Below, in pieces: positions 10,586-48,109 of a stretch of 64,000 bases of DNA (the first letter of the stretch is position 1; every line of letters begins with the position of its first letter). This stretch comes from an uncultured bacterium. Its GTDB lineage: Bacteria; Oederibacteriota; JAAXVQ01; JAUVAV01. The stretch covers positions 128,001-192,000 of the forward strand of contig CAVQBK010000001.1 in the NCBI GenBank assembly GCA_963710755.1. Reading direction: 5' to 3'. Under the pieces are notes generated by a model. It was not told the DNA's origin. It did not search any database and saw only the letters and a program-made list of their open reading frames with translations. Made by a program: the position numbers and the translations under genes.

Positions 10586-11948
10586 TATACCTGAGATGAT
10601 TTCAGCCCGTGCAGCCGCTTCATGTTCCGAGCCAGACAGACCAAAGTCCATTCGCTGCTGACAGCTTGCAAACCTCGCAGCATGAACTGGCGAAAGCCCA
10701 TGGCAGATTTAATAATTCCAAATACCGGCTCAACCGTGCTTTTACGTCGGGCATACAGTTTTCGGCCAGCTGGCATTTGCAACCGCCTCTTCATTCTTTC
10801 CACCGCATCAGCACGTTCAGGCAACGGCGGTGGTCCTGAAAAACGTTTTTTTAGCGATGGGTAGTGTTGCTCCCGCCTGTTGGCAATATATGGTTTGATC
10901 CCCTTGGATTCGCAAAGTTTAACATTGCTTTGGCTAAAGTATCCGCTGTCTGCTACCAATGCTTTTGCCTTTCCCAGCTCTTCTGGAAGAGCGGTTAATT
11001 GCACAAGTGCAGGCTCAAGTTGTTCTTTATCATTGGTCGCTTGAGTAACATGCTCAGTGACTATCAACATCGTTTCCATGTCCACCCCGGCTTGCGCATT
11101 ATAAGCTTGTTCGAACCCGCCACCGGAAACAGGCATGATGCGCGACTCGCCGTCGGTCAGGTTAACCTGATCTTTTGCTTGTGGGCCTTTATCGCTTGGC
11201 GGTTGTGGTTCTGGACCGCGGGATTTTTGACCTCTTTTATTTTCACGCTCACGACGCTCGGTCAGCTTCTGTTCATACTCTTTTTGGGCTTGTTGGTCAC
11301 GTTCAACGGCTCGTTGCTTGATGGCTGCTTTGGCTTTGGCAATAGCAGCCAAGCGATCTTCGCGACGAGCCAGCTCATCGGGCAGGTTCATCCCGTCAGG
11401 CTGGTCGGCCTCATCGGCTGCTTCGGCCAGTTGCAATAGGCGATTCACTTCCGCCCGGAGTTGCTTCTCTATCTTGTTGGCATGTCCCCAGGAAAGGGCA
11501 CGATGTTTTGATGCATTCGCATGAACCTTGCTCCCGTCCAAACTGATTTTACCGAGCTTCAATAGTTTCATGTCCTGAGCCAGGACCAGGACTTGTACGA
11601 ATAATGATTCCAATTCGGGGAGAAATCGTTTGCGGAATTGGGCTATTGTATCATGATCGGGATGGGTGTTTGCCGCCAGATAACGAAAAGCTATCGAATC
11701 ATAAGTGCTGCGTTCCAGCTGACGGCTCGAGAATAGGCCCGTGGCATATCCATACACCAGCACAGCCAGCAACATTTCAGGATGATAGGCCGACGATCCC
11801 CGCCCCGCTATGATTCTTTTAACTTCGTCAAGTCAAGTTGGGCGACAATTTCCGTTACAAACCGCGCCAAATGATTGACTGGGAGCCAATCATTCAACGA
11901 TGGCGGCAGTAAAAAATCCGTATCACGATCGCAGGGAACAAAACTCAT
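10585..11948 (-). pseudogene. IS1182-family DDE transposase, frameshifted near 11810
   Basis: N-terminus MSFVPCDRDTDFLLPPSLNDWLPVNHLARFV...KES* then -1 frame AGRGSSAYHPEMLLAVLVYGYATG; later LDGSKV, ADSGY, RKSTVEPVFG; adding one base restores a 454-aa protein. Confidence 0.88.
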
Positions 11949-20400: not shown

Positions 20401-23400
20401 AAACAGTTTCGATATTCTTAAGAGCAGTCTTGACGCTTTGCACTACCATCCGCTGAATTTAAAAGTTCATGGGAAGAAGGTACGGCTGATTGATGTTAAT
20501 CCGGAAATTCAATTTGATGCTGGTGGGATCCATTCGAAAGCTTTGGGGCTGTTTCTTAACGGATTTGATGTGACGGTGGGATTTGCCATTAATCCTATAA
20601 TTATTATTTATAAGGATATGGTAATTGCTGACTTGAACCTTGAACAAGCCAGATTTGTTAATGATGCCACCGACTCGGGTCATTCCATCGATGTTCAATG
20701 TAAACTCGCCCCGCCCGATGAAGGAGGCATGATTAAGGTCCGACATGTGGAACATAACAGATCGCGTGCGTTGATGATACAGACCATTATGAAAGCCCTG
20801 GGTGCACAATCCGATTATAATCCAACACGATTGAACCATGTTTTAACCATTCGGCTTGATAAAGACCATGGAGCGCGAAGTGCCTTCCACATAGAAAAAA
20901 ACCTTACATTGATTGTGAAAGTTTTAATGTCCATATGGGACAATGATTTGTTGCTGGATGATGACCGGAAAGCCGTTGCTGCCGCAGAACGATTTTTGAC
21001 TACCCACCAAATCGGACATTTTGAAACTTGGAAACCTATAATTCTCAACGAGGAACAACGTGAAAAAATCAATAATAGACTTAAACATTTGAGGCTTGAA
21101 GGGACAGTGACCGCAGGGCGCTTGACACAACCAATATTGGAGAAATATGTAAACGGTCCTATTCAGCATGCTTTAGCAAGAGGTGAATTGGAGTGGAATA
21201 AAAATGAAACGAGGTTAAAACGCAATCCGAACTATCGACCTATTGATCGTTTGGTGAAGGATATTAACAAGAGAGCGTCAGCCAAGGAAATGATCCAGAG
21301 TGCCGAAGCGATTTTACCTATATTAGATAATGTTAATTGGGAACCTGTTGGAAGTGTTGGTCAATATATAGCCGAGATCGGCACCTTTTACGATAGTAAG
21401 GGAAAGGCTTATGTGGCAACGATTTTAAGGGACTATCAATACAATGACATTGCATTTGCACGTGTAACGTTGAAAACAACACCGGGAAAGCGAATGTCGT
21501 CGTCAACAGTGCGCCGTTTGATAGGAAGTAAAATTGGACATGAACTAAAACCCATAGAAGCTATTGCTGATGAAGAATTGAATAATTCTCTGGCATTGCT
21601 TACTATCCCGTGGAAAAAAACAGAAGTGCCGGGACTGACGATGTTTCAGGGAAGGACAATGGGGGCAAATAAGACAGGGCAAAATCGATTGATTTTACCT
21701 GTTACCTTTAGGGCTGAAGATAGTGCCGGCAAACTTTACATCGCGCAAAGTTTAAAACCGGAGGATGTGACTTTTATCCCTCACTTGGGTGGAATAATAC
21801 AAGAGGGTACTGCTTTGCTCTCTCATGTTTCAGTACTGGTTCGTGAATTTGGTGTGCCGTCCATAAATTTGCCTAATATGAACATTCTTACCACAGATGA
21901 AGGTAAAAAAATATGCTATCTGGAAAATTTCGAACCTCTTCGCCAAGTGCCAACAAGAGATGGGTATTGGATATCGCGAACGATCAGGAAACATATACAT
22001 GTTTTAACTGAAGGTCAGAGGGTAATGATTGATGCCGGAAGCGGTGCACTTGTTGTATCGGAGAAGACTTCAGGGAATACGGATTTGTTGAAATTGGCCT
22101 ATGGTACCAGGTCGAAAAAATATAGTCGGCCTGTTCGAAGACAAGGTGGAAAAGGTGTTAAGATCAATAACCCGATTGTTCCGAAAACATCAACCATTCG
22201 CCGGCTGGGCAACGAAATGTCCACGTATGTGAGAATTGGTGAACTGGAAAGCAAGGATTATCCTGCCGTCGGGCCAAAAGCTGAGCAATTAGATCAATTA
22301 GCCAAAAATGCAGAGACCATGCCTTATGAGGTGCCGGGAGGGATCGTTGTTACCGCAAAGTTTTATCAAGACTTATTAGAAAAAAACGGAATCGAAGAAA
22401 AGTTGACACGTTTATTGAATGAGCAAACCATGTCGCCGCAGGAGGTGGCAAAACAATTTGACGACGTTTTACAGGACTTATTGGAAAATAAAACCAAATG
22501 GCTAGAAGAACAGGAAAAGAAAATATCAACGTTTCTCAAGGGGATTGATCCTGATGAAAGATGGTGGGCGGTACGGTCGGCCGGTCTGATCGAAGACACC
22601 AAAGACTTTTCGTTTACCGGATTGGGGATAACTGATTTATATGTACATCGTGATCATGTCCTTGAACATGTTATCTTAAATTTACGATCCCTGGCTTCGC
22701 CAAGTGCTGTCGCTTATTTGAGGGAGAATGGTCTTTCGCTTAAAGGTCTTTTTCATTCAGTGATTGTTCAAAAAATGCAACCTGGTGACGTTTCGGGCGT
22801 TGCTTTTACTAGCGACCCCGTAATTCCATCGGATCATGTTGTTATTAATGCAGCATATGGTTTAAATGAGGGGATCGTTAGCGGCATTGTAGCCCAGCCC
22901 GATGAATATACGGTGGATGAAAATAATTATCACGAGGTTGGCAAAAAAATAGGGAATAAGCGGTTGAAAGTTGTACCTGATCCGGATAACCAAAATGTGC
23001 AAATTATGATGGTCCAGGAGGGGGCAAGGGAACGTGCCTTAACGAGAAGACAAGTGGCGCTTTTAGCGAGACTGGCCAAAAAGATCAAGGAACGATATGG
23101 CGATTCGGATTTTGAATGGACCATTGATAAAGGAAAACTGTATTTATTTCAAAGACGACCTATTACGACTAAAGGAAACACCAATATTAAGAATGGGCGA
23201 TCCATGACAGGCGGAAGTTGGCCATGGATGAGAAGTTTGTGGCTGAGAGCGGGTCTTCCAGGTCGGTTGTATGATCAATGGTTTGCATGGTTGTTGGAAA
23301 ATGGGATTTCCCAAATAGTGGGTACTCCGGCATTGGGAATGGCGTTAATAATAATTGATTTAATCACTAATTCCCATTTGGGCGGCCTTTCAGAAGCAAC

Positions 23401-26400
23401 TATTGGTTGGTTTGTTTTTTTTCTATTGCATTTTATCCAAATGTTGGACTTGGAAACCAAGCCCAATCTTGGATTGTCCCTGCACTCGGATAGAGCGCCG
23501 CCGGCCACGGTCCTTATTCCTGCTTTGGTTATAACAATTCTAGGCATTACTTTTCAAATGTTACCTCTATCGCCACTTGGATTGGGTATACACTTTTTCA
23601 TGAATATCATTTCGCCTTATTTGGCTGAACATATATGGCTGCCTTTGAGAAATTTGGCCTTTCATTTTTTTATACAAAAAACAAACAAAGCCGCAGGCCC
23701 TAGCAGAGGGAGCAAATACTATCGTTTGGTGCTCGTTGCCTCTATCGTAGCTTACCTATTTTGGTTGGGAGGGCTTCTCGATCTAATTGTAGGGTGTTAT
23801 TTGGTTTATCATTTTATGTCGCCGGAAATCCTTACCAGGGCAAAAGCAGCCGGTACGCCACATGATCGGGTATTTGCCTTGAGGAAATTCGAACTGTCGG
23901 AAAAAGCAGAAAACAGTGTGAATTTAATTGCTGCGGATTCAGAAGGAAACATTGCCATCGCCCCCAGAGTGGCTACGTTTTCTCCTTACCGGCAATATGT
24001 GATTTTGGCTCAAATTTTAATGGGTCCCAAATTTTATTTATCCACCTTTTTAGGGAGATTTCTTACACCATTAGTTGGTGTGTATTTACTGGTACAAAAT
24101 AAATTGTATCATTATCAAATGATGGAGTTTGCTCAAAAAATTGAAGATACAGGTCTTTTGCATGCCCTTATATTGATTGATAATCAGAGAACCATGAACC
24201 GATTTGTGCGAATGGCCAAGCAAGATCGATTTGGATTATCTCGGTTAGATCTCAATGCCGATAGTGCCAAGGAGTTGTTGGCCCGCTTCGCTGATTTTTT
24301 AGAAGAACATAAAGATGACAAAAACGGGGATGCATTGTTGGAAAAGACCAGGGCGCTTGCATCGGCTTTTACTAAAGCCATGGATGTCCTGTTGGTAGAA
24401 AACACCTATCACTACCCAATGACTTATGCTAACGATTTAAAGATTGTGGCGGACGAAACATTGTCGGATGCATTGGCTCCCGCTGAAACTGTTTCCGAGC
24501 CTTTACTCCATCAACTTCTTGGTCGATATGAAAATGCCAAAGGACGATATTTCATATTCAGAAATAAAGAACAGGCTATTGCAGCTTTTGACAACCAAAG
24601 ACGGCAAGGAAACCGCTTTCAACATCAAAGGAAACTGATTGAAACTTATTTTACTGGTTTGCAATTGTTCGCTCAGAAACCTAGAAAGCTGAATCGTGAA
24701 TACATCAAAAGGATGTTTGAGATAGTTGGAACAATGGTTCGGGAAACGAGTGGTATTTACGAAAATATGCGCATGTTGGGAGAAGATCCGGGTAATAGAA
24801 TAAAATTAATGACAGACAAATTAGATTATTTCGAGAAAAGAATAAGCCGTATTCCGGATGAAGAATTGAACAACGCTTCAACTTTTGAATTCATCTTTGG
24901 TAAAAAAAGATGGATTACTTTTAACGATATCCAAACCTTGGCTCAGTATATGGATTTTTTACAAGCCAATGGGGTTTTGCTGCTTAAGGGTTCTCTGGAG
25001 AAGGTGGCTCAACCGCCCTTGCAACTGCGCTTGGAAGGCAAAAGAGTGAGAATGATAGACATTGATGAAGGTCCGATGTTTGATAAAGGCGGTGTCCACA
25101 GCAAGGTGTTAAGGCGTTTTTTTTATGGGTGGGATATCCCGGTCAATGCTATTGATATTCAACCTACTGTTATTTTGTATAGAGATATGATCATTGCTGA
25201 TCTTAACAGGGAAAGACATCAATTTGGAGATGATGCTTATCAAACCGGCCATTGGATAGACATACAATGCAAATTGAAGGCTCCTTCGGAAGGAGGGTTA
25301 ATTAACATCCGCTATTTGGAGCAAAATGCCAGCCGGTCAATCGCGATTCAGAAGGTACTAAGAGCATTAGGATTTTCCACACAATATGAACATAAATTAC
25401 TGACGGCCCAATTTAACAGTATTACCGGGGCCAGGAGTATAAGTGATATCGAAAACGTCCTTCCTGTGGTTGTTAAGTTGTTGTTGTCGACATGGGACAA
25501 CGATGAGTTTATAGATAACGAAAAGCGCGCTCATTTGGTGGCCGATAATTACTTGGCGACCCGTCAAATCATACGCTATAGCCGGTGGCCTTTATTAAAA
25601 ATTGATGAAAGAATAAGACAACTTATTAATGCGCGTATGAGACAGCTAGGGTTGAAGACAAGATACCCAGAAGAGATCTTGTCTCAAGGTAATTTAGACC
25701 AATATGTGAACGAACCAATCGAACATGCATTAGAAAGGGATGAATTGGAATGGGACGCTCGTAGGTCACGATTGGTTCTTAATCCGGATTACAAACCGAT
25801 GGAACGCTTGCTGAAAGATTTAAATGAGCCCGTGGAAGCTAAAGAATTATTAAAAGCGGCGGAAATTATATTGCCTCTTTATGAAAATGTCCGTTGGGAT
25901 GCCATTGGCGCAGTCGGGAAATATTTAATGGAAGTCGGTGTTTTTCGGGATGAAAATGGCATTGCTTTTGTTATGACCATCCTAAAGGACATTCGGACCA
26001 ATGATATTGCTTTTGCAAGGGTTTCATCAAAAAAATATCCGGGTGTAAAAGTCGGTGCAGATGAATTGCGTGAGATGGTTAGTTACAAAATTGGTCATCA
26101 ACTCAAGCCGATTGAGGATATCCCTGATGAAGAAGTGGACAATTATTTGTCGATGCTGAGAAAGCCATGGAGAGACAGCTATGGCGGGAATGCTACGGTC
26201 TATCCCGGAAAAATTATCAGTTACGGACCCCGAAAAACATTGCTCGAGGCATTACGAGTAACTTTTAACCCTGAAAATAGTCAGGGAAAACTCTATATTA
26301 CAGAAAATCTTTCTCCTGATAATGTGACGTTTATGCCGGGCTTGGGGGGCGTTTTGCAAGAAGGGACATCTTTACTTTCCCATACGGCCGTTTTACTTCG

Positions 26401-29400
26401 GGAGTTTAAAATACCATGCTTAAACTTGATGAACATGGACATCATCTTGAAACCGGATGGGACAAAATGTGCACGCTTGGAAAGTTACGAACCAACGGAC
26501 ATTCATGTAACTGCGGAAGGATACCAGGTAGCCCGGAGAATAATCGAACGTTCTTATAATTTGGAGGAAGGGCAATTTGTAATATTTAATCAAATGGCTG
26601 GAGAGATAAGCTTAGCGCAAGATTTCAAAGATTTATTGCGCTTACTGAGAGACAAGAAGAGGAGACGAGAAGAGGGGAGAAAATTAGCCAAAGAAAAGAA
26701 GAAAATTATTCATGAATACCAAAAGAAAAAGCTGGCCGATGACACAAGATATTTTGTGCGAATTGGTGATATGAAAAATAATGAAATTGATGCCACGGGT
26801 ACGAAAGCAAGAGAAATAGATCGCCTGCAGCATGACGCAAACGAATTAGACTATCAAATCCCTCCGGGAATAATTGTTACGGCGAAATTCTATGAAGACC
26901 TCATCAGTAAACACGGTTTGAGAAAACCATTAATGGAGCTCCTGAATAATACAAGACTTTCTCCAGAAGAAGTAGCACGACAATTTAAGCAAATATTGCT
27001 GGCGGTAATGCACCAAAAAAGTCCGTGGTTATTGGAACAGGAAGAAAGCCTTGAAAAGGCACTAAAAGCTGTCGGTGGTAATGAGCAGTGGTGGGCCGTA
27101 CGTTCGGCAGGAATAGAAGAAGACCAATTAGACCATTCCTTTGCGGGGCTCGGATTAACGGACTTATACGTTCACAGTGACCATATCATGGAACACCTCA
27201 TATTGAATGTGGCGGCTTTGGCCGAACCAAGTGCCATGAAATACCGGCAGGAAAACGGGCTACAAATTAGAAGGATATTACATTCAGCGATTGTGGAAAA
27301 AATGCAACCAGGGCAGGTCTCGGGGGTCACCTTTAGCAAAGATCCGGTAACAGGCGACAACACGCATTATGTGATTACGGCCGCCTTTGGATTGAACGAG
27401 GGGATATTAAAAGGTCATGTAGCAACACCAGATGAATATTTGGTACGTGCAGACAACAATCACGAACAAGGGAAAACCATTGGCGACAAAAAATTTAAAG
27501 TAGTGCCTGATTTAGATCATCAGAATGTAAAGGTTGTAGTCAATGAAGACAATCCGCGCGAACGAGCATTGTCACGTGAACAAGTTAGTCGCTTGGCCCA
27601 TCTGGCTTCGGTGTTGAAAAACCGGTATGGCCATTGTGATTTTGAATGGACAATCTCCGATGGTCAATTGTATTTGTTCCAGAGAAGACCGATCACTACC
27701 GGTCAGACCAAAGAGGGGGATGTAGAATATCTGACAAAAACAAATGACTTTCAGAAAAAATATTTTAAAAAGAATGTATTTGAAGTGTTGTTTCGTCAAG
27801 AAGGAAATGCTAGAGAAATGATCGCGATATTGTTAAAACTGATCCCTTCACTTGGCGTGCTAACGGGATTGTTCTTTTGGAATGTCGGATATACGATCTT
27901 GGGCATAGGGGTTATAACGATTGGAATGCTCATAATTATTATGGGAAAAATATTGCTAACCCATGACTACGCCCGCAACGGTAATGACGAGAAGGGTATA
28001 AGTGCAGACGCTAAATCGGGTTTGCCCAACTGGTTCGACGTAATAAAATTCCTGATTGCAACAGCTATTGTTTTAATTTTGCTGAGTTTTTCGCCATGTG
28101 CTTTTGGAATGATGGAGGGTATTACCCAAACAGGCAGTGTGGTGGTGGTTGGCATTGTTGCGACGATAGGATCATTAACCATTTTAGCCCGGAATTTTAA
28201 GCCTATTATTTTTGACGATAAAGGTCACCGCCATGGTGTTTTTGATGGCTCCAAAAACGAGAGTAGGGACTCACAGAGAGCGAAAAAAGCGATAGAAACA
28301 TATTCCTCCGAGGATTTGATAAAAAGTAATCAAGCCGTTGATTTTAAAAACTACCAAAAAGATGGCAGTAACCTTTCGTTGGGTGCTTTGGTCAATCAAT
28401 TGCTCGATTTTTCTGCGACCACCGAAGATGGGGGCAATGGGTTTGTTCGCTGGAATCCCGCTAAAGCGATGTTCAAAAAACTGGGCGATCGGTTTGTTTT
28501 GAAATTCATTCCCGGACGGGCCAAGGAAAGCAATCGCCGCGCTGCCGGCCAAAGTGCTGTTTTAAATGGTCAAAGAGGGTCGTTTTTATTAAAAATAACG
28601 CCTCCATTAATCATTGGCGGTATTGGTATGTTTTTTATATTAAACGTATCACCTTGGTTTGGGATTGCCTTTATGTCAGCCTGGGGGTTGGCTTATTTTA
28701 TTTATAAAAAATTGGGTGATAAGCCTGTGAAATCGACCGTAGAGTGGCTAGAAGATTTAAACAGATCCCAACGCCAAAAGCCTTTCTGGACATGGCCTAA
28801 ATTATTGCTTGCCGTGGCGATAATAGCAGCCGTGGCAGCCTATTTTAATCAGGATATTATATCCTTATACCACTTTTTATTTTTTAATATCGCTAGTGTT
28901 TTTGAGGTAAACCGTTTTTCCAAGACCGGTCAAGCAGCTGCCACCAGCACAGCTTCAACTAAAGATCTAACGCAGCAGGTGGCGCCGACCAGTCCTTCAG
29001 AAGAGGTCCAGCTTGATGCCGTAATTCGAGCTCAGGGATTTAATCATCAAATATTAGGTGCCTTGTCAGAGCAGTCAAACACGCCCTGGCAGCAGATCTG
29101 GCTCAATCTAACGCAATACCTCACCAGCCGCTGGATGATGAGTATTAGGGGGCAAGAAGATAAATTACAGGGACCAATTCAGGAAAAGGACCAGCAACTT
29201 ATTTTGAATTTGTTTATAAAGCATTATATCCATTCCGTACCGCAACTGTTTGGCCTTTTAGGGAAAAACGTCAAAATAGCCATGGCCAAAACCACGGAGA
29301 CGAACAATGAAGGGATGCTCCACTTTGATGCGGCCACTAAAACTTATAGTTTAAAACTGCCGGCTTATTGCTTCAACAATCAGGGAAGATTAAGCAAATC

Positions 29401-29788
29401 AGGTCAGTGGCTGCTGGGCATGACCATGTCTCAAATCCGTATGGACGAACAGAAGCAAGTCGACGTGAATTATAATAGGGAAGAACTCCTCGTTGCTCAA
29501 CTGCAGCGACTCGTACTTGACCATCAGAGCCTGAAAGATGCTTGGTTAAGCCATTTAGACCAGGGAAAAGAAAATAGTCCTAATGGGTTAATGGTCGTCA
29601 TTAAGTCCGAGGTTTACAAACATGATCTCACTCAATTGCAGCGTGAAATTAAAATAATTGCTCAACAAGCTAAAAAAGATAGTCTTTTACAAAATGAGTT
29701 AAACGCTCTTCTCAAGTCCATTGCAAATGGGGATAGGCATCGCCAACGTCAAAGGCATATGATGAAGTATGTTAATCAGGCGGTATAA
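17408..29788 (+). CDS. Giant 4126-aa membrane protein with two PEP-utiliser (phospho-His) + PPDK_N (ATP-grasp) modules
   Basis: Uninterrupted 12.4-kb ORF; N-terminal signal-like segment; LLSHVSVLVREFGVP and LLSHTAVLLREFKIP; twice WAVRSAG..ED, (Q/E)KMQPG.VSGV.F..DP, GLNEGI..G....PDEY, DFEWTI..G.LYLFQRRPITT; hydrophobic helix clusters. Confidence 0.9.
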   Translation: MMALYQQPVFQRRKSMIFQIKACALITIASFLLPIVSWAFEPATYGINQPALIHFNHLAKPLAIPENLGNVRESFQGSDKVIVSIEDLHCNYEVQKNIAGLISYLAKTQHLKLVGEEGAFHRVDTSVITSFPVDRIREKVSDYFVRQGKMTGAEYVAAVNHTPIILEGIESPQLYLASEKVVHTFLNAESQGYIYDLRALLEQLKKTVYSKALMEFDRKRQAYRTGHLTLLHYAAFLGKTALHHGLTPADYPALDQYLQGHEGGFSSDQLIQEMDDLDAKLRGFLYQDPKERQMDEAWQRVDLMEKLLNISATQKELAAFRQERSAFTVSSMAAALASLQQSQSEHRVLSMDPELYQLDNYLKQAETFYHLADRRSKAFVDKLLAKMEDHHQNLAVMINGGFHAQEVLKDLKKRGVSYIAIRPRLTHPDVLNPYFELLQGRQTPLEKLLAKHQKIMALRSGFEEITFKGLLLVALKPFGLLLRKRRMPLILSGNLERALETFQRKNETLFKLASEFTPQEYMKYHLPSGIIAYHTEINQTKSILLIVPTRKVDQSKLQLQRVLEYEIYSDFTFIHLNNFNRDLNDDESLDAQMRKTVNTVIAKSTNTGLDFYQIIKNAFKSINNRPLSWRHFVFPASGIDLKGLYTPFAGFDINKVMTSAMQISVRCSLYFGILAIAWMTVVDKNEFVKWMMSVGAVVLGSLTANLFGSGSVNLSTPSGLAQVIEETGILNICNYLDDKTSCSKFREMANNYNVPFLAGPDGDTILHGMVNYFHKLQTEGDIKKIRSALKEMKKISSDFFKQESVVIVTNNYYTNMETINGLSLIGDEPLMNVLNSEHQRKDVLLDKVYRSLREGRHRFIFWKKEEADQQSVEKRKEAQSVLDSHIRLIEANFQALPMMSQEQEKMTRARLELILRIVKTMVEESAAVYNSMRSPSFNPDRQINALRGKLEALTRAISDLPENQLDGKSAYNLIYDPTPWHNFADVHSLSQFINFVHQNSFDILKSSLDALHYHPLNLKVHGKKVRLIDVNPEIQFDAGGIHSKALGLFLNGFDVTVGFAINPIIIIYKDMVIADLNLEQARFVNDATDSGHSIDVQCKLAPPDEGGMIKVRHVEHNRSRALMIQTIMKALGAQSDYNPTRLNHVLTIRLDKDHGARSAFHIEKNLTLIVKVLMSIWDNDLLLDDDRKAVAAAERFLTTHQIGHFETWKPIILNEEQREKINNRLKHLRLEGTVTAGRLTQPILEKYVNGPIQHALARGELEWNKNETRLKRNPNYRPIDRLVKDINKRASAKEMIQSAEAILPILDNVNWEPVGSVGQYIAEIGTFYDSKGKAYVATILRDYQYNDIAFARVTLKTTPGKRMSSSTVRRLIGSKIGHELKPIEAIADEELNNSLALLTIPWKKTEVPGLTMFQGRTMGANKTGQNRLILPVTFRAEDSAGKLYIAQSLKPEDVTFIPHLGGIIQEGTALLSHVSVLVREFGVPSINLPNMNILTTDEGKKICYLENFEPLRQVPTRDGYWISRTIRKHIHVLTEGQRVMIDAGSGALVVSEKTSGNTDLLKLAYGTRSKKYSRPVRRQGGKGVKINNPIVPKTSTIRRLGNEMSTYVRIGELESKDYPAVGPKAEQLDQLAKNAETMPYEVPGGIVVTAKFYQDLLEKNGIEEKLTRLLNEQTMSPQEVAKQFDDVLQDLLENKTKWLEEQEKKISTFLKGIDPDERWWAVRSAGLIEDTKDFSFTGLGITDLYVHRDHVLEHVILNLRSLASPSAVAYLRENGLSLKGLFHSVIVQKMQPGDVSGVAFTSDPVIPSDHVVINAAYGLNEGIVSGIVAQPDEYTVDENNYHEVGKKIGNKRLKVVPDPDNQNVQIMMVQEGARERALTRRQVALLARLAKKIKERYGDSDFEWTIDKGKLYLFQRRPITTKGNTNIKNGRSMTGGSWPWMRSLWLRAGLPGRLYDQWFAWLLENGISQIVGTPALGMALIIIDLITNSHLGGLSEATIGWFVFFLLHFIQMLDLETKPNLGLSLHSDRAPPATVLIPALVITILGITFQMLPLSPLGLGIHFFMNIISPYLAEHIWLPLRNLAFHFFIQKTNKAAGPSRGSKYYRLVLVASIVAYLFWLGGLLDLIVGCYLVYHFMSPEILTRAKAAGTPHDRVFALRKFELSEKAENSVNLIAADSEGNIAIAPRVATFSPYRQYVILAQILMGPKFYLSTFLGRFLTPLVGVYLLVQNKLYHYQMMEFAQKIEDTGLLHALILIDNQRTMNRFVRMAKQDRFGLSRLDLNADSAKELLARFADFLEEHKDDKNGDALLEKTRALASAFTKAMDVLLVENTYHYPMTYANDLKIVADETLSDALAPAETVSEPLLHQLLGRYENAKGRYFIFRNKEQAIAAFDNQRRQGNRFQHQRKLIETYFTGLQLFAQKPRKLNREYIKRMFEIVGTMVRETSGIYENMRMLGEDPGNRIKLMTDKLDYFEKRISRIPDEELNNASTFEFIFGKKRWITFNDIQTLAQYMDFLQANGVLLLKGSLEKVAQPPLQLRLEGKRVRMIDIDEGPMFDKGGVHSKVLRRFFYGWDIPVNAIDIQPTVILYRDMIIADLNRERHQFGDDAYQTGHWIDIQCKLKAPSEGGLINIRYLEQNASRSIAIQKVLRALGFSTQYEHKLLTAQFNSITGARSISDIENVLPVVVKLLLSTWDNDEFIDNEKRAHLVADNYLATRQIIRYSRWPLLKIDERIRQLINARMRQLGLKTRYPEEILSQGNLDQYVNEPIEHALERDELEWDARRSRLVLNPDYKPMERLLKDLNEPVEAKELLKAAEIILPLYENVRWDAIGAVGKYLMEVGVFRDENGIAFVMTILKDIRTNDIAFARVSSKKYPGVKVGADELREMVSYKIGHQLKPIEDIPDEEVDNYLSMLRKPWRDSYGGNATVYPGKIISYGPRKTLLEALRVTFNPENSQGKLYITENLSPDNVTFMPGLGGVLQEGTSLLSHTAVLLREFKIPCLNLMNMDIILKPDGTKCARLESYEPTDIHVTAEGYQVARRIIERSYNLEEGQFVIFNQMAGEISLAQDFKDLLRLLRDKKRRREEGRKLAKEKKKIIHEYQKKKLADDTRYFVRIGDMKNNEIDATGTKAREIDRLQHDANELDYQIPPGIIVTAKFYEDLISKHGLRKPLMELLNNTRLSPEEVARQFKQILLAVMHQKSPWLLEQEESLEKALKAVGGNEQWWAVRSAGIEEDQLDHSFAGLGLTDLYVHSDHIMEHLILNVAALAEPSAMKYRQENGLQIRRILHSAIVEKMQPGQVSGVTFSKDPVTGDNTHYVITAAFGLNEGILKGHVATPDEYLVRADNNHEQGKTIGDKKFKVVPDLDHQNVKVVVNEDNPRERALSREQVSRLAHLASVLKNRYGHCDFEWTISDGQLYLFQRRPITTGQTKEGDVEYLTKTNDFQKKYFKKNVFEVLFRQEGNAREMIAILLKLIPSLGVLTGLFFWNVGYTILGIGVITIGMLIIIMGKILLTHDYARNGNDEKGISADAKSGLPNWFDVIKFLIATAIVLILLSFSPCAFGMMEGITQTGSVVVVGIVATIGSLTILARNFKPIIFDDKGHRHGVFDGSKNESRDSQRAKKAIETYSSEDLIKSNQAVDFKNYQKDGSNLSLGALVNQLLDFSATTEDGGNGFVRWNPAKAMFKKLGDRFVLKFIPGRAKESNRRAAGQSAVLNGQRGSFLLKITPPLIIGGIGMFFILNVSPWFGIAFMSAWGLAYFIYKKLGDKPVKSTVEWLEDLNRSQRQKPFWTWPKLLLAVAIIAAVAAYFNQDIISLYHFLFFNIASVFEVNRFSKTGQAAATSTASTKDLTQQVAPTSPSEEVQLDAVIRAQGFNHQILGALSEQSNTPWQQIWLNLTQYLTSRWMMSIRGQEDKLQGPIQEKDQQLILNLFIKHYIHSVPQLFGLLGKNVKIAMAKTTETNNEGMLHFDAATKTYSLKLPAYCFNNQGRLSKSGQWLLGMTMSQIRMDEQKQVDVNYNREELLVAQLQRLVLDHQSLKDAWLSHLDQGKENSPNGLMVVIKSEVYKHDLTQLQREIKIIAQQAKKDSLLQNELNALLKSIANGDRHRQRQRHMMKYVNQAV
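19565..23170 (+). repeat. Giant-protein internal repeat unit 1 (~1200 aa dikinase-like module)
   Basis: LAQVIEETG ... LFQRRPITT, collinear with unit 2. Confidence 0.85.
24128..27700 (+). repeat. Giant-protein internal repeat unit 2 (~1190 aa dikinase-like module)
   Basis: FAQKIEDTG ... LFQRRPITT; shares blocks such as GH.ID.QCKL, WDND, YVN.PI.HAL.R.ELEW, NDIAFARV. Confidence 0.85.
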
Positions 29789-41807: not shown

Positions 41808-42551
41808 ATGCCCATGGGCTTGCAGGGTCAACGCCGGAAAACACCTTGGTATGTGATAACGGAAATTATCTTTTTTATATTACCGCTGGCCGGATTGTGG
41901 ACTACCTTGAAAAAGATGAATCGCCGTGCCTTTGGTCTGACCCTGGTTATCATCATGGTCCTGGGTTACAGTTGGAGTATGCTGGTGTCCAGTCATGGTT
42001 GGTGGCAATTTAACCCCCAGACCATGCTGGGCTGGCAGGTTTTACCACATTTACCGCTGGAAGAAGCCTTGTTCTATCCCTTGGGAGGTGCGCTCAGCAT
42101 TTTGGTGTATGGATTTCTGGCTGATAAAATGGCTAATCCTCGTTGGAAATCCTTGGGATTTTACTTTCTTTTCCTGGCCTTAACGCTGGTGGTTCTGGGA
42201 GCGGCTACCACGGCGGTGGCGAATAATTTTCATCCTGCCTATATCCTCAGTCAGGTGGTGCTTTACAACGGCCTGGCGTTGCTTCTCTGGCCGGTGGCAG
42301 GCCCCAAATTCCACCTGCCCGGGCTGTTGGTCACTATCGTTATCTTAACTGCTGTTGGAGTTTTCTGGAATTATGTGGGATTTACCCAACGCCTTTGGTG
42401 GTACACGGCTGTTTTGGGGTGGAACTGGCCCAAAGCAGTGCCTGTGGATGACTGGAATTTTTATATTTTTGCACCCCTGGCTGCAATCTCGCTGTATATA
42501 TTGTTGGATTCCAAGCATAGCCGCCGGTCAACCCATCCAGGGGATTTATGA
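41808..42551 (+). CDS. Lycopene-cyclase-like membrane protein, two domains (CrtYcd-like)
   Basis: GWWQFNP...HLPLEEALFY and LWWY...AVPVDDWNFY (Px[ED][ED] motifs); ~7 TM helices; GGGAG RBS before ATG 41808. Confidence 0.7.
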   Translation: MPMGLQGQRRKTPWYVITEIIFFILPLAGLWTTLKKMNRRAFGLTLVIIMVLGYSWSMLVSSHGWWQFNPQTMLGWQVLPHLPLEEALFYPLGGALSILVYGFLADKMANPRWKSLGFYFLFLALTLVVLGAATTAVANNFHPAYILSQVVLYNGLALLLWPVAGPKFHLPGLLVTIVILTAVGVFWNYVGFTQRLWWYTAVLGWNWPKAVPVDDWNFYIFAPLAAISLYILLDSKHSRRSTHPGDL

Positions 42552-42889
42552 TGCGTCCCTGGCCATGGTATTTTATGATGGACCTTATATTGTGGGGGAT
42601 AAGTCTGGCTTTGGTGAAATGGAGTTGGTCCAAGTTGAGCCGTTCTTGGAAAACAACAGCAATGGTCACTGCTACCTTGGTGATGGGATTGCAAACCTGG
42701 AATGAGTGGCTCAGCTTCAATGTCTATAAAGCTTGGGGGTTTTCCCAGGCCCATAATACTCTGCTGGGTATCCATTTCTTAGGAGCACCGGTGGAAGAAC
42801 ATTTGTTTTGGTACGCCTTTGCCTGGATGGTGCCTTTTTTGTATGCCCGCCTGGCTGGCGGAAAGGAAGCTCATGATGGCCGCGCCTAG
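42548..42889 (+). CDS. Lycopene-cyclase-domain membrane protein
   Basis: WNEW...AWGF...LGIHFLGAPVEEHLFWY; ATGA overlap with the upstream gene. Confidence 0.72.
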   Translation: MMRPWPWYFMMDLILWGISLALVKWSWSKLSRSWKTTAMVTATLVMGLQTWNEWLSFNVYKAWGFSQAHNTLLGIHFLGAPVEEHLFWYAFAWMVPFLYARLAGGKEAHDGRA

Positions 42890-43265
42890 TAGCCCACCAT
42901 CAAAACAGGCGCACCTGGCTTTGGATAAGGGATCAAGGAAACAACTCTACCTGATCTGGTGGGTGCTGGGCGTGGCGGCTCAAATCCTGCTCAGCCTGCC
43001 AATGGTGATGAAAACTATTTCCTGGAAGGCGGTTGGCTTGACCTCACTGGTGTTTGTCCCGCTCATGTTTGCGGTTGAAAGCGTCAGTGTTTATTGGGGA
43101 TGGTGGGTATGGAATGAAGATAAACTTTGTGGTCTTAAGGCGGGCTTTATTCCGCTGGAAGAGGTAGCTTTGTATTTTCTGGTAGTGCCGTCGGTGGCGG
43201 TGATGTTTCATCTTGTCTGCCGTCTGTTGAAAGCCGTTTTTCCCAGCTTGAAGGCAGACAATTAA
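42873..43265 (+). CDS. Lycopene-cyclase-domain membrane protein
   Basis: VESVSVYWGWWVWN...GFIPLEEVALYF; AAGGA RBS; overlaps the upstream stop. Confidence 0.72.
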   Translation: MMAAPSSPPSKQAHLALDKGSRKQLYLIWWVLGVAAQILLSLPMVMKTISWKAVGLTSLVFVPLMFAVESVSVYWGWWVWNEDKLCGLKAGFIPLEEVALYFLVVPSVAVMFHLVCRLLKAVFPSLKADN

Positions 43266-43303
43266 AATCCGGCAAGTAGCATCGAAAGGAAGGACTTGGA
43301 AAA

Positions 43304-43825
43304 ATGAATTTTCTTTATGCATGGCGTGGGGAACTATACACCCTGGCAAGCATTGTTTCGACTTGGTTTGCCATTAAATGGATTTTTAAAAAGAATCCGA
43401 CCATTTATATGCTGGCCGGGGCTCTGGTAGGTCTGGCCAATGAGTTTATGACCGAGCCGCTTTGGACTTACCATATGCAGTTTTACTTATGGCGGGACAT
43501 CTCGCCGTTCACTATTCTGGGATGGGGCCCGCTTTTTGCCATTATAGTGCTTGGCTCGGAAGCACTTTATAAAAAGTTGTTCCCTTCCAGTCCAGTGCGA
43601 AATTGGAAAATTATTCTTACTGATTTAATGGTGGGAGCGCCTTTGATGGTGGCAGGCGAGACTTTGGGACTAAGGGTGCTGCACATCTGGGAATATAATA
43701 GTGTCCTGCAATGGCATGCTATGGTGCCCTTGATTAATTACCCCTTGGCCGGACTGGTCAGCATGGCCTTTTTCATTATGGCCATGCCGGCTGTTGTGCG
43801 CTACTGGGCGGAGAAAGGAGCCTGA
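43304..43825 (+). CDS. Membrane protein, paralog A (carotenoid cyclase/CruF-like E..WxY..P pattern)
   Basis: EFMTEPLWTY...WRDISPFTILGWG; ETLGL...WEYN...INYPLAGL. Confidence 0.6.
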   Translation: MNFLYAWRGELYTLASIVSTWFAIKWIFKKNPTIYMLAGALVGLANEFMTEPLWTYHMQFYLWRDISPFTILGWGPLFAIIVLGSEALYKKLFPSSPVRNWKIILTDLMVGAPLMVAGETLGLRVLHIWEYNSVLQWHAMVPLINYPLAGLVSMAFFIMAMPAVVRYWAEKGA

Positions 43826-43826
43826 C

Positions 43827-44366
43827 ATGTGGACATTGGTGACGGCCTGGAGGTCTGAATTGCTCACGGTTTTGGCGTTTGCTTTTTCCTGGTGGTTTTT
43901 CAGTCGCATGCTGCACCTGTCTTTTTTAAAGACCTGGGTTCCCGGATTTTTACTAGGAGCAGCGGTGGAGATCATGACCGAGCCGGAATGGACTTACACC
44001 ATGCAATGTTACATCTGGCGTGATGTCTCGCCTTTTGTCATGATGGGATGGGGGATTATGTTTTCTTGGATGATATTATTTTCCGACAAACTTTACCGTA
44101 CTTTTTTCCATGTGACCATGTCAGAACGGGCGCCCCAGGATCCCCGATTATGGCTGACCGATGTGCTGGTGGGCCTGCCGTTTTTTTTAGGAAATGAACT
44201 TTTTGGACTTCATATTTTAAAGAGTTGGAAATATAATGCAGTTTTACAATGGACTACGATGCTGCCGGGTATTAATTATCCACTGGAAGGCTTGGTCGCC
44301 ATTTTATTTTTTAGTCTGGGACTACCGGCCGCAGTACGCTTTTGGAAAGGATACCCTGTGCCTTGA
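43827..44366 (+). CDS. Membrane protein, paralog B of 43304-43825
   Basis: EIMTEPEWTY...WRDVSPFVMMGWG; ELFGL...WKYN...INYPLEGL; AAGGAG RBS; aligns full-length with paralog A. Confidence 0.62.
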   Translation: MWTLVTAWRSELLTVLAFAFSWWFFSRMLHLSFLKTWVPGFLLGAAVEIMTEPEWTYTMQCYIWRDVSPFVMMGWGIMFSWMILFSDKLYRTFFHVTMSERAPQDPRLWLTDVLVGLPFFLGNELFGLHILKSWKYNAVLQWTTMLPGINYPLEGLVAILFFSLGLPAAVRFWKGYPVP

Positions 44367-46063
44367 AAGCCCTTGTCAACCTGGATGTTAAACTTCTGCG
44401 TCTTAGTATTTGGATCACCCTTGGGGCGGCCTTGTTGTTTCTGCCGGTACAGCACTTTTTTGTTCCACCTGCCACACGGCCCATGGTCTACGCAGCCTTG
44501 GGATTTACGCTGGTTTACACGGGCGTGTTGTTTCTGGGGTTTCATTTAAAAAAATACCGTTTAACCGCAATTGCTTTTGTTTTTTTTCACCTCATTACCG
44601 ATTCTTTTGCCATTAGCGCTCATCCGGACAATTTGTTGATTTATGCCTTCTTGCTGGTATTCCTGTTCATTTTTATCTTCAATATACTTCTGGTGCGTTG
44701 GCCGGAAGTGATCGGAAGTGATGTGGTACTGCTGGCGGGCGTGCTGGTTTATATGCTATGGCCGGTCACCGGATTCTTGGGAGCTTTGCGGGAATGGAAT
44801 GTGGATCCGGGATTTGGGGTCGGCGCTATATTTGTTTTTTTTAGTCTGCTTGCCCTATTGGGTACCGCTGCTATTGAGACTATCCGCAGGAAAGAAGAAA
44901 AACTAATCATCATTAATGCCAATCTTCACCGCTTGGTAGCCGAACAGGTAAATAAAATCATTCAGTCTGACAAGGAAAAGCGGGCTTATCAGGAACAGGT
45001 GGAGAGCATTTTGCGCCACATTCCCGTAGGCGTGGTCATTGTAGATCGGGAACTAAATGTGCTCTACAGCAATGGCGTGCACATCAAGGAAGCCCGAGCG
45101 CAGGGCCCTGATAATGACGACCAGGAATCAATATTGCCACAGGACGTGCTTAAAAGTGATTTGTTAAAAGCCAAATTTGATCTGGCCCTAAGTTCTCAAA
45201 AAAAATTGGTAGGGCAGCATTTTACTCATGTTGGAAAAAATGACCAGACGCGAATTATTCGTTATTCTTATGTGCCGGTTAATTTGGATCCCGACGATCA
45301 ACACCTAAAGCTAGTCTTGATCACCGAAGATATTACCCAGGAAGAAAATATGCGCGAAAAGTTGATGCGTACGGAGCATATGGCGGAAATGGGCAAGATG
45401 GCCGCCAATTTGGCCCATGAAGTTAATAATCCACTGGCGGGTATCAAGCTTTATTTGGAATTACTGGAACAGGGGATTGAAGATGACGGTAAACGCAAAC
45501 GTATTTTCACCATCCTTGATACCAGCATTGCCCGCATCGACAAGATTATCAAAGGTTTCTTAACCTTTTCCCGGCAGGAAAAAGCCCGGAAAGACCAGAT
45601 TAACCTGGCCGCGGTTATGAAAGAAACACTGGATATTGCTGTTGGATTTAAACCGTTGCATCATATTGATATTGACATTAACTTATCCAAAGACTTGCCT
45701 TTTGTTGCGGCTGACCGCTACAAAATGGGCCAGGTGTTTCTTAATTTAATCAATAATGCTAAAGATGCCATGCCCCAGGGCGGCCGCCTGCAGATATCCG
45801 CGCGTAGGGAGGAGGATCACATTGTCTTGGTGTTTGCAGATAATGGAATGGGTATTAAAAAAGAAGATGTTCCCCATGTTTTTACTCCTTTTTACACCAC
45901 CAAGGAAAGAGGTCATGGTACGGGTTTGGGCTTGTCTACCTGCTATGGGATTATTCAGGATCATGGTGGTACCATTGATGTCAGCAGTCGGGAAGGGGTA
46001 GGGACTACTTTCACGATAAAAATACCTATTGTCTTGACCAAGAAAGGATTATTCCATGGCTAG
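44363..46063 (+). CDS. Membrane sensor histidine kinase (multi-TM, PAS, NtrB-type)
   Basis: ~6 TM helices, PAS-like IPVGVVIVD, LAHEVNNPL, QVFLNLINNA, DNGMGI, FTPFYTTK, GTGLGL; TTG start overlaps the upstream TGA. Confidence 0.92.
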   Translation: MKALVNLDVKLLRLSIWITLGAALLFLPVQHFFVPPATRPMVYAALGFTLVYTGVLFLGFHLKKYRLTAIAFVFFHLITDSFAISAHPDNLLIYAFLLVFLFIFIFNILLVRWPEVIGSDVVLLAGVLVYMLWPVTGFLGALREWNVDPGFGVGAIFVFFSLLALLGTAAIETIRRKEEKLIIINANLHRLVAEQVNKIIQSDKEKRAYQEQVESILRHIPVGVVIVDRELNVLYSNGVHIKEARAQGPDNDDQESILPQDVLKSDLLKAKFDLALSSQKKLVGQHFTHVGKNDQTRIIRYSYVPVNLDPDDQHLKLVLITEDITQEENMREKLMRTEHMAEMGKMAANLAHEVNNPLAGIKLYLELLEQGIEDDGKRKRIFTILDTSIARIDKIIKGFLTFSRQEKARKDQINLAAVMKETLDIAVGFKPLHHIDIDINLSKDLPFVAADRYKMGQVFLNLINNAKDAMPQGGRLQISARREEDHIVLVFADNGMGIKKEDVPHVFTPFYTTKERGHGTGLGLSTCYGIIQDHGGTIDVSSREGVGTTFTIKIPIVLTKKGLFHG

Positions 46064-46406
46064 ACGCCTTTTAGTGGTTGATGATGAAATGGTTATTCGC
46101 GATCCCATAACCATTTATTTGGAACAACTGGGGTATACAGTTGACCATGCGGAAAATGGTGTGGAAGCTCTGCATTTAATTTGTTCCAAAACCTATGATT
46201 TGGTGATTCTTGACATCAGTATGCCCTATATGAATGGCCATGAGTTGAGCCAAGCTTTGAAGGACGAAGGACAAACCGTGCCCATTTTGATTATTTCCGC
46301 CAAAGTGCCCAGCACGCCGCTCCATCAAGAGGCAGGCCGGCTCATCAAACCTTTTTCGTTGAAAGCTCTGGCCCAGGAAATCGAAAATATTTTAAACACT
46401 CCTTAA
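46056..46406 (+). CDS. Single-domain response regulator
   Basis: LLVVDDE, ILDISMP, IISA, IKPF. Confidence 0.92.
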   Translation: MARRLLVVDDEMVIRDPITIYLEQLGYTVDHAENGVEALHLICSKTYDLVILDISMPYMNGHELSQALKDEGQTVPILIISAKVPSTPLHQEAGRLIKPFSLKALAQEIENILNTP

Positions 46407-46567
46407 GTGTGCTATGATTAAACGCGCTTGGGTTGGGACGTCTTGTTGCGGCCGGCTGGTAGGTTGAATGAAGCTGAACAGGACGTTGGTTTTTAGACAA
46501 AGCGGACTTGACCATTCCGAAGAGATCTCAAAGCAATAATAGTATATCAGACGGGGGATTAGTGTTC

Positions 46568-46846
46568 ATGGCAAAAAAAGTCAATACCAAGCTTGAAAAA
46601 AAGCAGTTTTTTATGGGATTCTTTACGTTTTTAGGTGTTTTTTTGCTTTCTTACGTATGGGTGTTGTTTATTACCCCTATTCCTTATACCTCGGCCGGCT
46701 TATATGCCTTGATCAGCTTTTTAACGGGTGTGCTGGCCTCGGTAGTCTTGATATTTACACGTCATTCTCTAATGGGGTTAGGTGGTAGTTTGGCAGCAAT
46801 CCTCTATGTGGTTTTCTTCGCCGTGACCTGGAGTCTGGTGCGCTAA
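46568..46846 (+). CDS. Small hypothetical 3-TM membrane protein
   Basis: Three hydrophobic helices; convergent overlap with the next gene. Confidence 0.55.
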   Translation: MAKKVNTKLEKKQFFMGFFTFLGVFLLSYVWVLFITPIPYTSAGLYALISFLTGVLASVVLIFTRHSLMGLGGSLAAILYVVFFAVTWSLVR

Positions 46847-48109
46847 GATCTTGAGGTCAAAACGATCGAGGCTGAACAGGAAACTGTTGCCGCCACGCTG
46901 ATTGACGGTGGTCCATAAATGACCCTGATGTTTGGCAATGATTTTTTGGCAAATGGCCAGCCCCAATCCGCTTCCTGTTTTTTTAGATGTTGACTTGATG
47001 CGGTAAAACTTTTCGAAGACCCGATTCCGCTGATCCTCGGTCAGGGGCGTTCCCAAATCATCGATCGAAAAAATGACCTTCTCACCTTTGCTGTAACAAT
47101 TAATATAGACTGGTGTTTGATCAGGAGCATATTTCAAGGCGTTGGAGATCAAGTTGGACAAGACTTGCAACAAACGAAGTTTATCCGCTTTGACCATAAG
47201 CGCCTTTTGGATCTGTTCCAATTGCACTCGATCCAACTGTCCCGGCTCACTGCCTTTGATGGAAGCCAAAGCTTCAGTGATCAAGTTAGCGCAGGAAACA
47301 GGTTCGAATTTCAGATCCAATTTATCCAATTCCAATTTGGTCAATACTAAAAGATCATTAATCATACGTTCGATATAACTGCTGTTCTTTTTAATGATGG
47401 TACTGAATTCCAATTGATCGTCGGTAAGGGGTCCCAGTTTGCCTTTCATGAAAAGTGTGGCGAATCCGCCGATGGAAGTGATAGGGGTGCGCAATTCATG
47501 GGCCACCATAGAAATGCTTTCCGAACGGGCCAATTCAGCTTCGCGCAACTCATCATTAGCTTTGCGTAATTGATCAGTTGTACTTCTTATTTCTTTTTCG
47601 AGTTCCTGATTAAAGGTTTCCTGGCGTTCAAAAGCCTTGGCATTGGCCAGGGCCGAGGCCAGCATAGTACTGATTTTTTCAAGCAGGGTTAAATCTTCTC
47701 CGGTAAAGACCGGGGTTTCGGCGTCGAGAGAAAGCTGGATAGCACCAATGGGACGGCCCTCCACCAGCAAGGGCAGGGTCATAAAATGTCCTTTCTCCTG
47801 TTCTTCGACTTGGTGGGAGGGAGCTGCCTGGGTTTGAGCATTCAAGATGGTGCGCTCACCCGTCGTGATTACCCATTGGGCCAAACCGCTGGCCGTATCA
47901 GGGCTCGATTTTTGAAGTAAATGGTCTTGAGCGTCCAAAGTAAAGGACTTTAGATCAGCGGCGGGTGCGGTTAGATAGAGAAAGACCTGAGCCTGGCGAT
48001 AGAGATCCTTTAAAGCCAGCAACCCATGGTAAATGACTTTTTTGACCCGCAGGGATTGGTGCAGCGATTGCGCCAGATCCAATAATTTCAACATTTGGGG
48101 AAGATACAT
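46778..48109 (-). CDS. GAF-domain sensor histidine kinase
   Basis: GAF (LPLLVEGRPIGAI), AHELRTP, QVLSNLISNALKY, FEKFYR, GSGLGL. Confidence 0.92.
   Translation of the reverse strand: MYLPQMLKLLDLAQSLHQSLRVKKVIYHGLLALKDLYRQAQVFLYLTAPAADLKSFTLDAQDHLLQKSSPDTASGLAQWVITTGERTILNAQTQAAPSHQVEEQEKGHFMTLPLLVEGRPIGAIQLSLDAETPVFTGEDLTLLEKISTMLASALANAKAFERQETFNQELEKEIRSTTDQLRKANDELREAELARSESISMVAHELRTPITSIGGFATLFMKGKLGPLTDDQLEFSTIIKKNSSYIERMINDLLVLTKLELDKLDLKFEPVSCANLITEALASIKGSEPGQLDRVQLEQIQKALMVKADKLRLLQVLSNLISNALKYAPDQTPVYINCYSKGEKVIFSIDDLGTPLTEDQRNRVFEKFYRIKSTSKKTGSGLGLAICQKIIAKHQGHLWTTVNQRGGNSFLFSLDRFDLKILAHQTPGHGEENHIEDCCQTTT

Follow-up and report, generated by a model that had tools for sequence, protein, structure and literature searches.

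Gene organization of the locus

The window, that is, the whole stretch of DNA analysed, comprised 64,000 nucleotides (positions 128,001 to 192,000 of contig CAVQBK010000001.1, assembly GCA_963710755.1) and came from the genome of an uncultured soil bacterium (G000; 3.44 Mb on 13 contigs, 98% complete). Seven open reading frames (ORFs), all on the plus strand, were identified within positions 41808–46406 and were labelled, in the direction of transcription, g1 to g5, kinase and receiver. The first three encode proteins assigned to the CarR/lycopene-cyclase domain family, whose members are universally annotated as pigment enzymes. A sensor kinase gene stayed linked to these genes in related genomes, no route to lycopene was detectable in the genomes that carry them, and the CarR-fold proteins may serve as an input module of the kinase. 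The families themselves were known already; their combination is new to us. The features of the locus were as follows.

41808..42551, plus strand: g1, membrane protein of 247 amino acids with seven helices and two predicted CarR/lycopene-cyclase domains (PLEE, PVDD); based on PF18916, TIGR03462 and an AlphaFold model
42548..42889, plus strand: g2, 113 amino acids, one predicted CarR domain (PVEE); PF18916 below cut-off, hhalign match to the N-terminal domain of g1
42873..43265, plus strand: g3, 130 amino acids, one predicted CarR domain (GWWxWNE...PLEE); PF18916 and TIGR03462 below cut-off, hhalign match to the N-terminal domain of g1
43304..43825, plus strand: g4, 173 amino acids, paralog of g5 found in the genus of the window only; 43% identity to g5, no Pfam or NCBIfam match
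43827..44366, plus strand: g5, membrane protein of 179 amino acids with five helices, from a rare and so far unnamed family in which the pattern E...WxY is repeated internally; based on the family alignment and a model
44363..46063, plus strand: sensor histidine kinase with a multi-transmembrane N-terminus (residues ~1–175), PAS, HisKA and HATPase_c domains; based on Pfam and hydropathy
46056..46406, plus strand: single-domain response regulator of 116 amino acids, receiver (REC) domain only; PF00072, 79.4 bits
46508..46846, plus strand: small membrane protein 3' of the receiver, an uncertain member of the system; conserved in family f1, no family match

The initial annotation had described seven co-oriented genes with tight junctions, and a script reproduced each junction exactly: an ATGA overlap between g1 and g2, a 17-nucleotide overlap between g2 and g3, a 38-nucleotide gap between g3 and g4, a 1-nucleotide gap between g4 and g5, a TTGA overlap between g5 and the kinase gene, and an 8-nucleotide overlap between the kinase and receiver genes. 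A purine-rich stretch was located 5' of most start codons. Scanning for promoters and terminators gave nothing decisive within the operon, and terminator-like sites did not exceed the shuffled expectation. A search for sequencing runs listed three DNA runs from soil, all of one study, and no RNA run. Pfam and NCBIfam scans found no substrate-supplying enzyme in the operon.

CarR-domain proteins encoded by g1, g2 and g3

The g1 protein passed the curated cut-offs of two lycopene cyclase domain models, scoring 28.5 bits for PF18916 (Lycopene_cyc; cut-off 27) and 56.5 bits, over two stretches, for TIGR03462 (cut-off 39.4). The g2 protein (25.4 and 26.6 bits for PF18916 and TIGR03462, respectively) and the g3 protein (23.7 and 30.1 bits, respectively) stayed below both cut-offs. 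Alignment of profiles with hhalign showed both to be homologous to the N-terminal domain of g1, with a probability of 91.8% and an E-value of 7e-7 for g2 and a probability of 96.4% and an E-value of 1e-9 for g3.

An acidic PxE(E/D) motif is the signature of the CarR family. Four such motifs were found, PLEE and PVDD in g1, PVEE in g2 and PLEE in g3, and in all of them the proline and both acidic residues were invariant among 6–7 orthologs of 35–50% identity. The motifs of g1 were unchanged across 6 orthologs, while P81, E83 and E84 of g2 and P94, L95, E96 and E97 of g3 were invariant across 7; the tryptophan-rich stretch ahead of each motif was likewise kept. In f5, a distant family of the same phylum, the counterparts of the motifs read VPIEE, IPVEN, APVEE and VPIEE. 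Membership of g1, g2 and g3 in the CarR/lycopene-cyclase domain family is supported by these profile matches and motifs. By analogy with known enzymes, the fused pair in g1 and the split pair of g2 and g3 would each act as a two-domain unit.

The g1 subfamily has few members: 25 proteins were returned at E<=1e-3 by a word-based search, none of them below 36% identity, and their names were either 'lycopene cyclase domain-containing protein' or hypothetical. Two of the g3-like proteins from f5, those of G040 (L042:709-1686) and G030 (L043:1149-1841), had a C-terminal extension of ~200 residues that was absent in the order of the window.

Sensor kinase and receiver

Hydropathy analysis of the kinase showed hydrophobic segments that were almost continuous over residues 7–175, and no extracytoplasmic sensor domain was present. 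The kinase matched HisKA (54.4 bits) and HATPase_c (97.1 bits), and PAS_4 scored 22.2 bits, just under its cut-off of 23.1. The receiver matched Response_reg and contained no output or DNA-binding domain. The kinase with several membrane helices and a PAS domain and the lone receiver named in the initial annotation were therefore recovered, with the PAS domain just short of its threshold. By our reading of the sequences, the phospho-accepting histidine would lie in 'AHEVNNPL' of the kinase and the acceptor aspartate in 'LVILDISMP' of the receiver. Since the receiver has no output domain, output would pass through protein contact or a phosphorelay.

Within the transmembrane region of the kinase, P28, H87, W113 and P114 were invariant across 10 orthologs of 39–45% identity. 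Receiver orthologs were found 3' of the kinase gene in eight loci (L017, L018, L019, L021, L023, L033, L034 and L035), and none was adjacent to the kinase gene in L016 or L022. Complex prediction for g1, g2, g3 and residues 1–190 of the kinase gave a score of 0.00 in two runs, in which no control complexes were folded.

Linkage of the kinase across genomes

Orthologous loci were read by tblastn of the window proteins on genome regions. Using the g3 profile, the module was found in 17 of the 99 genomes of the phylum: 9 of 11 in family f1 (window included), 4 of 4 in family f2 and 4 of 5 in f5, with none in the other 79. Families f1 and f2 belong to the order of the window. In every readable locus of this order (10/10, window counted; G000, G003, G004, G005, G006, G007, G009, G011, G013 and G014), the kinase gene directly followed g2–g3 or g5. 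The block g1–g2–g3–g5–kinase, mostly followed by the receiver gene, was present in G003, G004, G005, G011 and G014. The same block occurred without g5 in G006, G007 and G009 and without g1 in G013. In G001 and G010 the module was split over contigs, and the arrangement was consistent with that of the others. The genes g2 and g3 adjoined in every locus read. The constant core is the split pair of g2 and g3, and the fused g1 and the divergent g5, together with g4, are variable additions.

The block was constant while its upstream flank differed, with rarA in f1 and a 2TM-domain protein in f2. The neighbourhood in f1 was wholly syntenic, with genes for a cNMP-binding protein, DUF1015 and rarA upstream and genes for a small membrane protein and a GAF kinase downstream. 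In f2, the 2TM-domain (PF13239) protein was encoded directly upstream of the module (L016:10956-11237), and a gene for a PAP2-superfamily membrane phosphatase was convergent with the kinase or receiver gene (L016:6048-7187, L018:11060-12895 and L022:9-557). The PAP2 family includes lipid-phosphate phosphatases, a possible hint at a lipid-phosphate ligand.

The internal order was different in f5. In G035 the genes were arranged as g1-like, multi-transmembrane kinase, g2-like and g3-like, and the same order was seen in G024, spread across two contig ends. The stop codon of the f5 kinase gene lay 4 nucleotides ahead of the g2 start. A gene for an HTH-REC regulator was found nearby, divergent from g2–g3 in G040. 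The G024 kinase upstream of g2–g3 (L037:7647-9139) was represented by two overlapping ORFs, one with the transmembrane part and one with the catalytic part, which may be due to a frameshift or an assembly error. As the kinase was still linked to the CarR genes in this different order, the linkage survives rearrangement. The linkage to a kinase described from the window alone was thus conserved across f1 and f2 and was found rearranged in f5.

The module was also absent as a whole. G002 (98% complete) and G008 (96% complete) contained none of the CarR genes, g5 or the kinase sensor region, all of which were present in G010 of the same genus. The genome of the window had 34 HisKA matches in its 3.44 Mb, roughly one gene in ninety by our estimate. 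At this density repeated adjacency by chance is unlikely, although the figure is an estimate and not a test.

Carotenoid genes in genomes with the module

A Pfam scan of the 32 other ORFs of the window found no carotenoid or isoprenoid genes. Profile searches of the genome of the window detected no SQS_PSY synthase and no squalene-hopene cyclase N-domain, and they detected two polyprenyl synthases, four UbiA-type prenyltransferases and, on another contig, two crtI-family genes (483 and 348 bits). The absence of carotenoid genes reported earlier therefore held for the window and did not extend to the genome. The crtI cluster (contig C7, L030:6199-15703) contained the two crtI-family genes together with genes for an aldehyde dehydrogenase, a PEMT-like methyltransferase, a CruG/HpnB-like glycosyltransferase and a 288-amino-acid protein, with a photolyase gene adjacent.

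The survey was extended to 61 relatives with the SQS_PSY and crtI_fam profiles. None of the 17 module-bearing genomes had both above the cut-off. SQS_PSY was found in none of the 15 genomes of f1 and f2, including that of the window, and seven of the 17 genomes with the module had crtI_fam above the cut-off. Six of the 17 (G003, G004, G005, G006, G010 and G012) had neither. In f5, SQS_PSY was present and crtI_fam was found in none of five genomes at E<=1e-20. At the same threshold crtI_fam also occurred in families without any SQS_PSY, namely f4 (3/5), f7 (4/4), f11 (3/4) and f12 (2/4).

With no route to lycopene detectable in the 17 module genomes, a role of the module as a plain lycopene cyclase is unlikely; the seven crtI-bearing genomes would need an unknown synthase. 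This agrees with the initial annotation, which had looked beyond lycopene cyclisation for the function of these genes.

The g4/g5 family

The products of g4 and g5 are paralogs with 43% identity and had no match in Pfam or NCBIfam. The gene g4 was present in G000 and G001 only, both of the genus of the window, and in a FastTree tree it was sister to the whole g5 clade of f1 and f2. The g5 family is rare: of 1.84 billion representative proteins covered by a full HMMER scan, 24 matched at E<=1e-3, of which 8 reached E<=1e-10, and the matches of g5 in the protein atlas were unnamed clusters only. Residues G44, E48, Y57, W75, G76, D112, E124, W134, Y136 and R171 were invariant in the family and formed the pattern E...WxY twice.

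Comparison of the g5 family with the CarR profiles by hhalign was not significant (7–14% probability, E-values of 2e-3 to 5e-3), and g4 and g5 were therefore not filed under the CarR family. Segment 106–170 of g5 always aligned in register with the helix-hairpin-PxEE part of the CarR domain. As a control, g2 against g3 gave a probability of only 31%. The sequences and models together suggest that g4 and g5 are CarR-like in architecture only. The initial annotation had counted five genes as lycopene-cyclase-like. This count stood for g1, with scores above the cut-offs, and for g2 and g3, through hhalign, with all four motifs present; it was too strong for g4 and g5, whose likeness to g1 lay in a common helix pattern and the same best neighbour in the PDB.

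Distant g5-like genes were located directly upstream of other multi-transmembrane kinase genes in G017 and in the metagenome locus L045. No CarR gene was in view beside either pair, and none was found in the G017 genome. The g5-like gene of G017 (L020:7099-11263) lay between a gene for a 559-amino-acid FAD-binding protein and a gene for a multi-transmembrane hybrid kinase with a C-terminal receiver. The N-terminal matches of the FAD-binding protein to the geranylgeranyl reductase family (23.6 bits against a cut-off of 158.8) and the lycopene cyclase family (16.9 bits) were too weak for an assignment.

Structural models

AlphaFold models of g1 and g5 had pLDDT values of 91.5 and 92.2, respectively. 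The g1 model showed two full helix-helix-hairpin-helix units and a linker helix, and the g5 model one full and one shortened unit. For both models the first VIA-align match was 4xu4_A, the mycobacterial Insig homolog MvINS, with Z 9.4 and a root-mean-square deviation (rmsd) of 4.6 Å over 162 of 189 residues for g1, and Z 7.6 and rmsd 3.4 Å over 132 residues for g5. Human Insig (6m49_A) ranked second for g1 with Z 6.5, ahead of the next unrelated chain at 5.3, and third for g5 with Z 5.6. The Foldseek match to Insig had a probability of 0.99 and an E-value of 0.077 for g1 and a probability of 0.75 and an E-value of 0.37 for g5. The common first match agrees with both proteins being built alike, as far as the models go. 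These scores are modest for helical membrane proteins, and the relation to the Insig fold is therefore a lead. No Pfam match at E<=0.1 was to INSIG (PF07281), and searching the sequences of the PDB with profiles of g1 and g5 yielded no Insig chain and nothing meaningful.

Comparison with known systems

By hidden Markov model, g1 and, more weakly, g2 and g3 fall into the same family as the lycopene beta-cyclases CrtYc/CrtYd, the C50 cyclases CrtYe/Yf and the R domain of fungal CarRA/CrtYB. As in CrtYc/Yd-type cyclases, three-helix domains come in pairs, split in g2 and g3 and fused in g1, with an acidic PxE(E/D)-type motif where the third helix of each domain begins. Those enzymes have two domains, whereas the present genes encode four canonical ones and, in addition, one or two divergent proteins. 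Unlike those of the cyclases, these genes lie outside any crt cluster, and their constant neighbour is a histidine kinase gene.

The best structural neighbours of the g1 and g5 models, with modest scores, were the Insig proteins (4xu4, 6m49). Insig, a small polytopic protein, binds lipid and controls the membrane proteins that are its partners. No sequence similarity to Insig was seen, and the partner would be a bacterial kinase rather than SCAP or HMG-CoA reductase.

According to one report, MvINS was crystallised with diacylglycerol, and FigP, a bacterial protein with a predicted Insig-like fold, is a partner subunit of the SpoVAF channel in Bacillus spores; the authors suggest lipid binding by FigP (PMC10903944). 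FigP would resemble the proteins described here as a bacterial protein of predicted Insig-like fold with a membrane protein as partner; it differs in that its partner is an ion channel and its host belongs to another group of organisms, and it is not shown to be related to the CarR family.

Intramembrane-sensing histidine kinases with accessory membrane proteins include LiaF-LiaS, BceAB-BceS and the thermosensor DesK. The module would resemble them in the several transmembrane helices of its kinase, the lack of an extracytoplasmic sensor and the co-encoded small polytopic membrane proteins. It differs from them in that the accessory proteins are of the CarR fold and the receiver has no output domain. 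To our knowledge, the CarR fold has not been reported as an accessory of intramembrane-sensing kinases. A literature search found no link of the PF18916/TIGR03462 lycopene cyclase domain to histidine kinases in titles or the beginnings of abstracts, and among the matches listed there was no link of the Insig fold to lycopene cyclases and, for Firestonebacteria, no title on this module.

Proposed function and alternatives

An intramembrane-sensing function was favoured for three reasons: apart from the signalling pair, all products of the operon are polytopic membrane proteins; the kinase lacks an extracytoplasmic domain; and g2 and g3 are the constant partners. We tentatively regard the CarR-fold proteins as the lipid-facing input module of a two-component system, a reading that we prefer without much confidence. 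The CarR-fold proteins would sit in the cytoplasmic membrane beside the multi-transmembrane kinase. Their ligand would be a membrane lipid other than lycopene, of polyprenyl type or of another kind, which they would either bind or both bind and turn over. Lipid occupancy would be relayed to the kinase through transmembrane contacts, followed by phosphorylation of the single-domain receiver. Like the initial annotation, which proposed a heteromeric complex that makes, modifies or binds a lipid signal, we infer the formation of a complex and the class of ligand, as well as the direction in which the signal passes and the receiver output.

Several observations weigh against a lipid-sensing input module. 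In G012 (99% complete), 2TM-g2-g3 stood at the end of a contig, g1 was missing, and no kinase sensor region was found in the assembly. In G030 an unrelated non-kinase gene preceded g2, on a contig of 1.8 kb. The transmembrane regions of the kinases from four contexts (the window compared with L045, G035 and G017) gave hhalign probabilities below 1%; they are not detectably homologous, and thus nothing points to one co-evolving receptor domain. A search for longer, fused forms of the g5 family found none, and no CarR-kinase or g5-kinase fusions were found, which is weak evidence. To these points are added the insignificant hhalign scores of the g5 family described above and the Insig Z scores, which lie below the trust level of about Z 13 for helical membrane folds, with Foldseek E-values of 0.08–0.4, where helical bundles may match by arrangement alone. 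Finally, the invariant PxEE/PxDD motifs fit catalysis at least as well as pure binding.

The main rival accordingly takes the CarR proteins as an active proton-initiated cyclase complex that works on a non-carotenoid polyprenyl lipid, for example a quinone or polyprenol tail or, in f5, squalene, and whose product is the signal read by the kinase or is controlled in its level by the kinase, a logic of maker plus receptor known from other operons in which a membrane enzyme is paired with a multi-transmembrane kinase. The invariance of the proline and acidic residues in all four motifs, the related motifs kept in f5 and the g1 scores above the curated thresholds of cyclase domain models speak for this rival, the evidence for linkage to the kinase applies to it equally, and the polyprenyl synthases and UbiA-type genes of the genome indicate that polyprenyl substrates exist. 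Set against this, none of the loci read had a linked gene for substrate supply or product modification, g5-like genes are paired with kinases where no CarR gene is in view (G017, L045), g1 is dispensable in G012 and G013, as is g5 in G006, G007 and G009, and carotenoids are the only cyclised polyprenyl products of CarR-type enzymes known to us. We rate such a cyclase complex as possible, though rather doubtful. A simpler enzymatic explanation, that these are ordinary carotenoid cyclases of an unlinked pigment pathway and that the kinase merely regulates pigment formation, can draw on the crtI-family cluster elsewhere in the genome of the window and on the presence of the CarR module in all seven f1 and f2 genomes with crtI_fam above the cut-off. 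It conflicts with the lack of SQS_PSY in f1 and f2, where the genome of the window is 98% complete, with the ten of 17 module genomes that have no crtI_fam above the cut-off (among them G003 and G004 (97% complete) and G012 (99%)), with f5, which has SQS_PSY but no crtI_fam at the stated threshold, with the frequency of crtI_fam in families of the phylum that have no CarR genes, and with a receiver that has no DNA-binding domain. We consider it highly improbable.

The CarR-fold and two-component genes might also be independent neighbours kept by synteny, or the membrane proteins might be mere regulatory targets. The wholly syntenic neighbourhood of f1 means that part of the conservation is simple inheritance, and the unlike transmembrane regions of kinases from different contexts would suit such independence. 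The block stays while its flanks change between f1 and f2, f5 places the kinase between CarR genes, G002 and G008 lost the module as a whole, and g5-like genes recur beside kinases in unrelated contexts, all of which make either reading improbable. Returning to the lipid-facing input module, one more specific form of it would take a branch of the CarR-fold proteins, which so far are known as carotenoid cyclases only, as bacterial Insig-like lipid sensors, in which an intramembrane pocket binds a polyprenyl or other membrane lipid and helix-helix contact gates the histidine kinase, as a prokaryotic counterpart of the Insig-SCAP logic. We think this form unlikely. If it were true, it would hint at one ancestral lipid-binding fold common to cyclase and sensor, and the possible fold link would join bacterial and eukaryotic lipid sensing.

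If the CarR-fold proteins do sense or make a lipid for the kinase, they would represent a new kind of input module in two-component signalling and would give a function to the rare g5 family that recurs beside multi-transmembrane kinases. The label 'lycopene cyclase domain-containing protein' would then be poor evidence of carotenoid synthesis in uncultured lineages.

Other features of the window

The small membrane protein encoded 3' of the receiver gene (46508-46846) was the best-conserved gene of the neighbourhood in f1 genomes, with 61–86% identity in L017, L019, L021, L023 and L035, all from f1. Its 3' end overlapped by 69 nucleotides the 3' end of a convergent ORF for a GAF-HisKA kinase (46778-48109, minus strand). 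A single ORF of 4126 amino acids occupied positions 17408-29788 on the plus strand; its sole Pfam matches were PPDK_N (354 bits, two stretches) and the PEP-utilizers mobile domain, and it far exceeded the size of known PEP-utilising enzymes. A DDE transposase gene (DDE_Tnp_1, DUF772) was located at positions 10585-11775 on the minus strand, ~30 kb upstream of the module.

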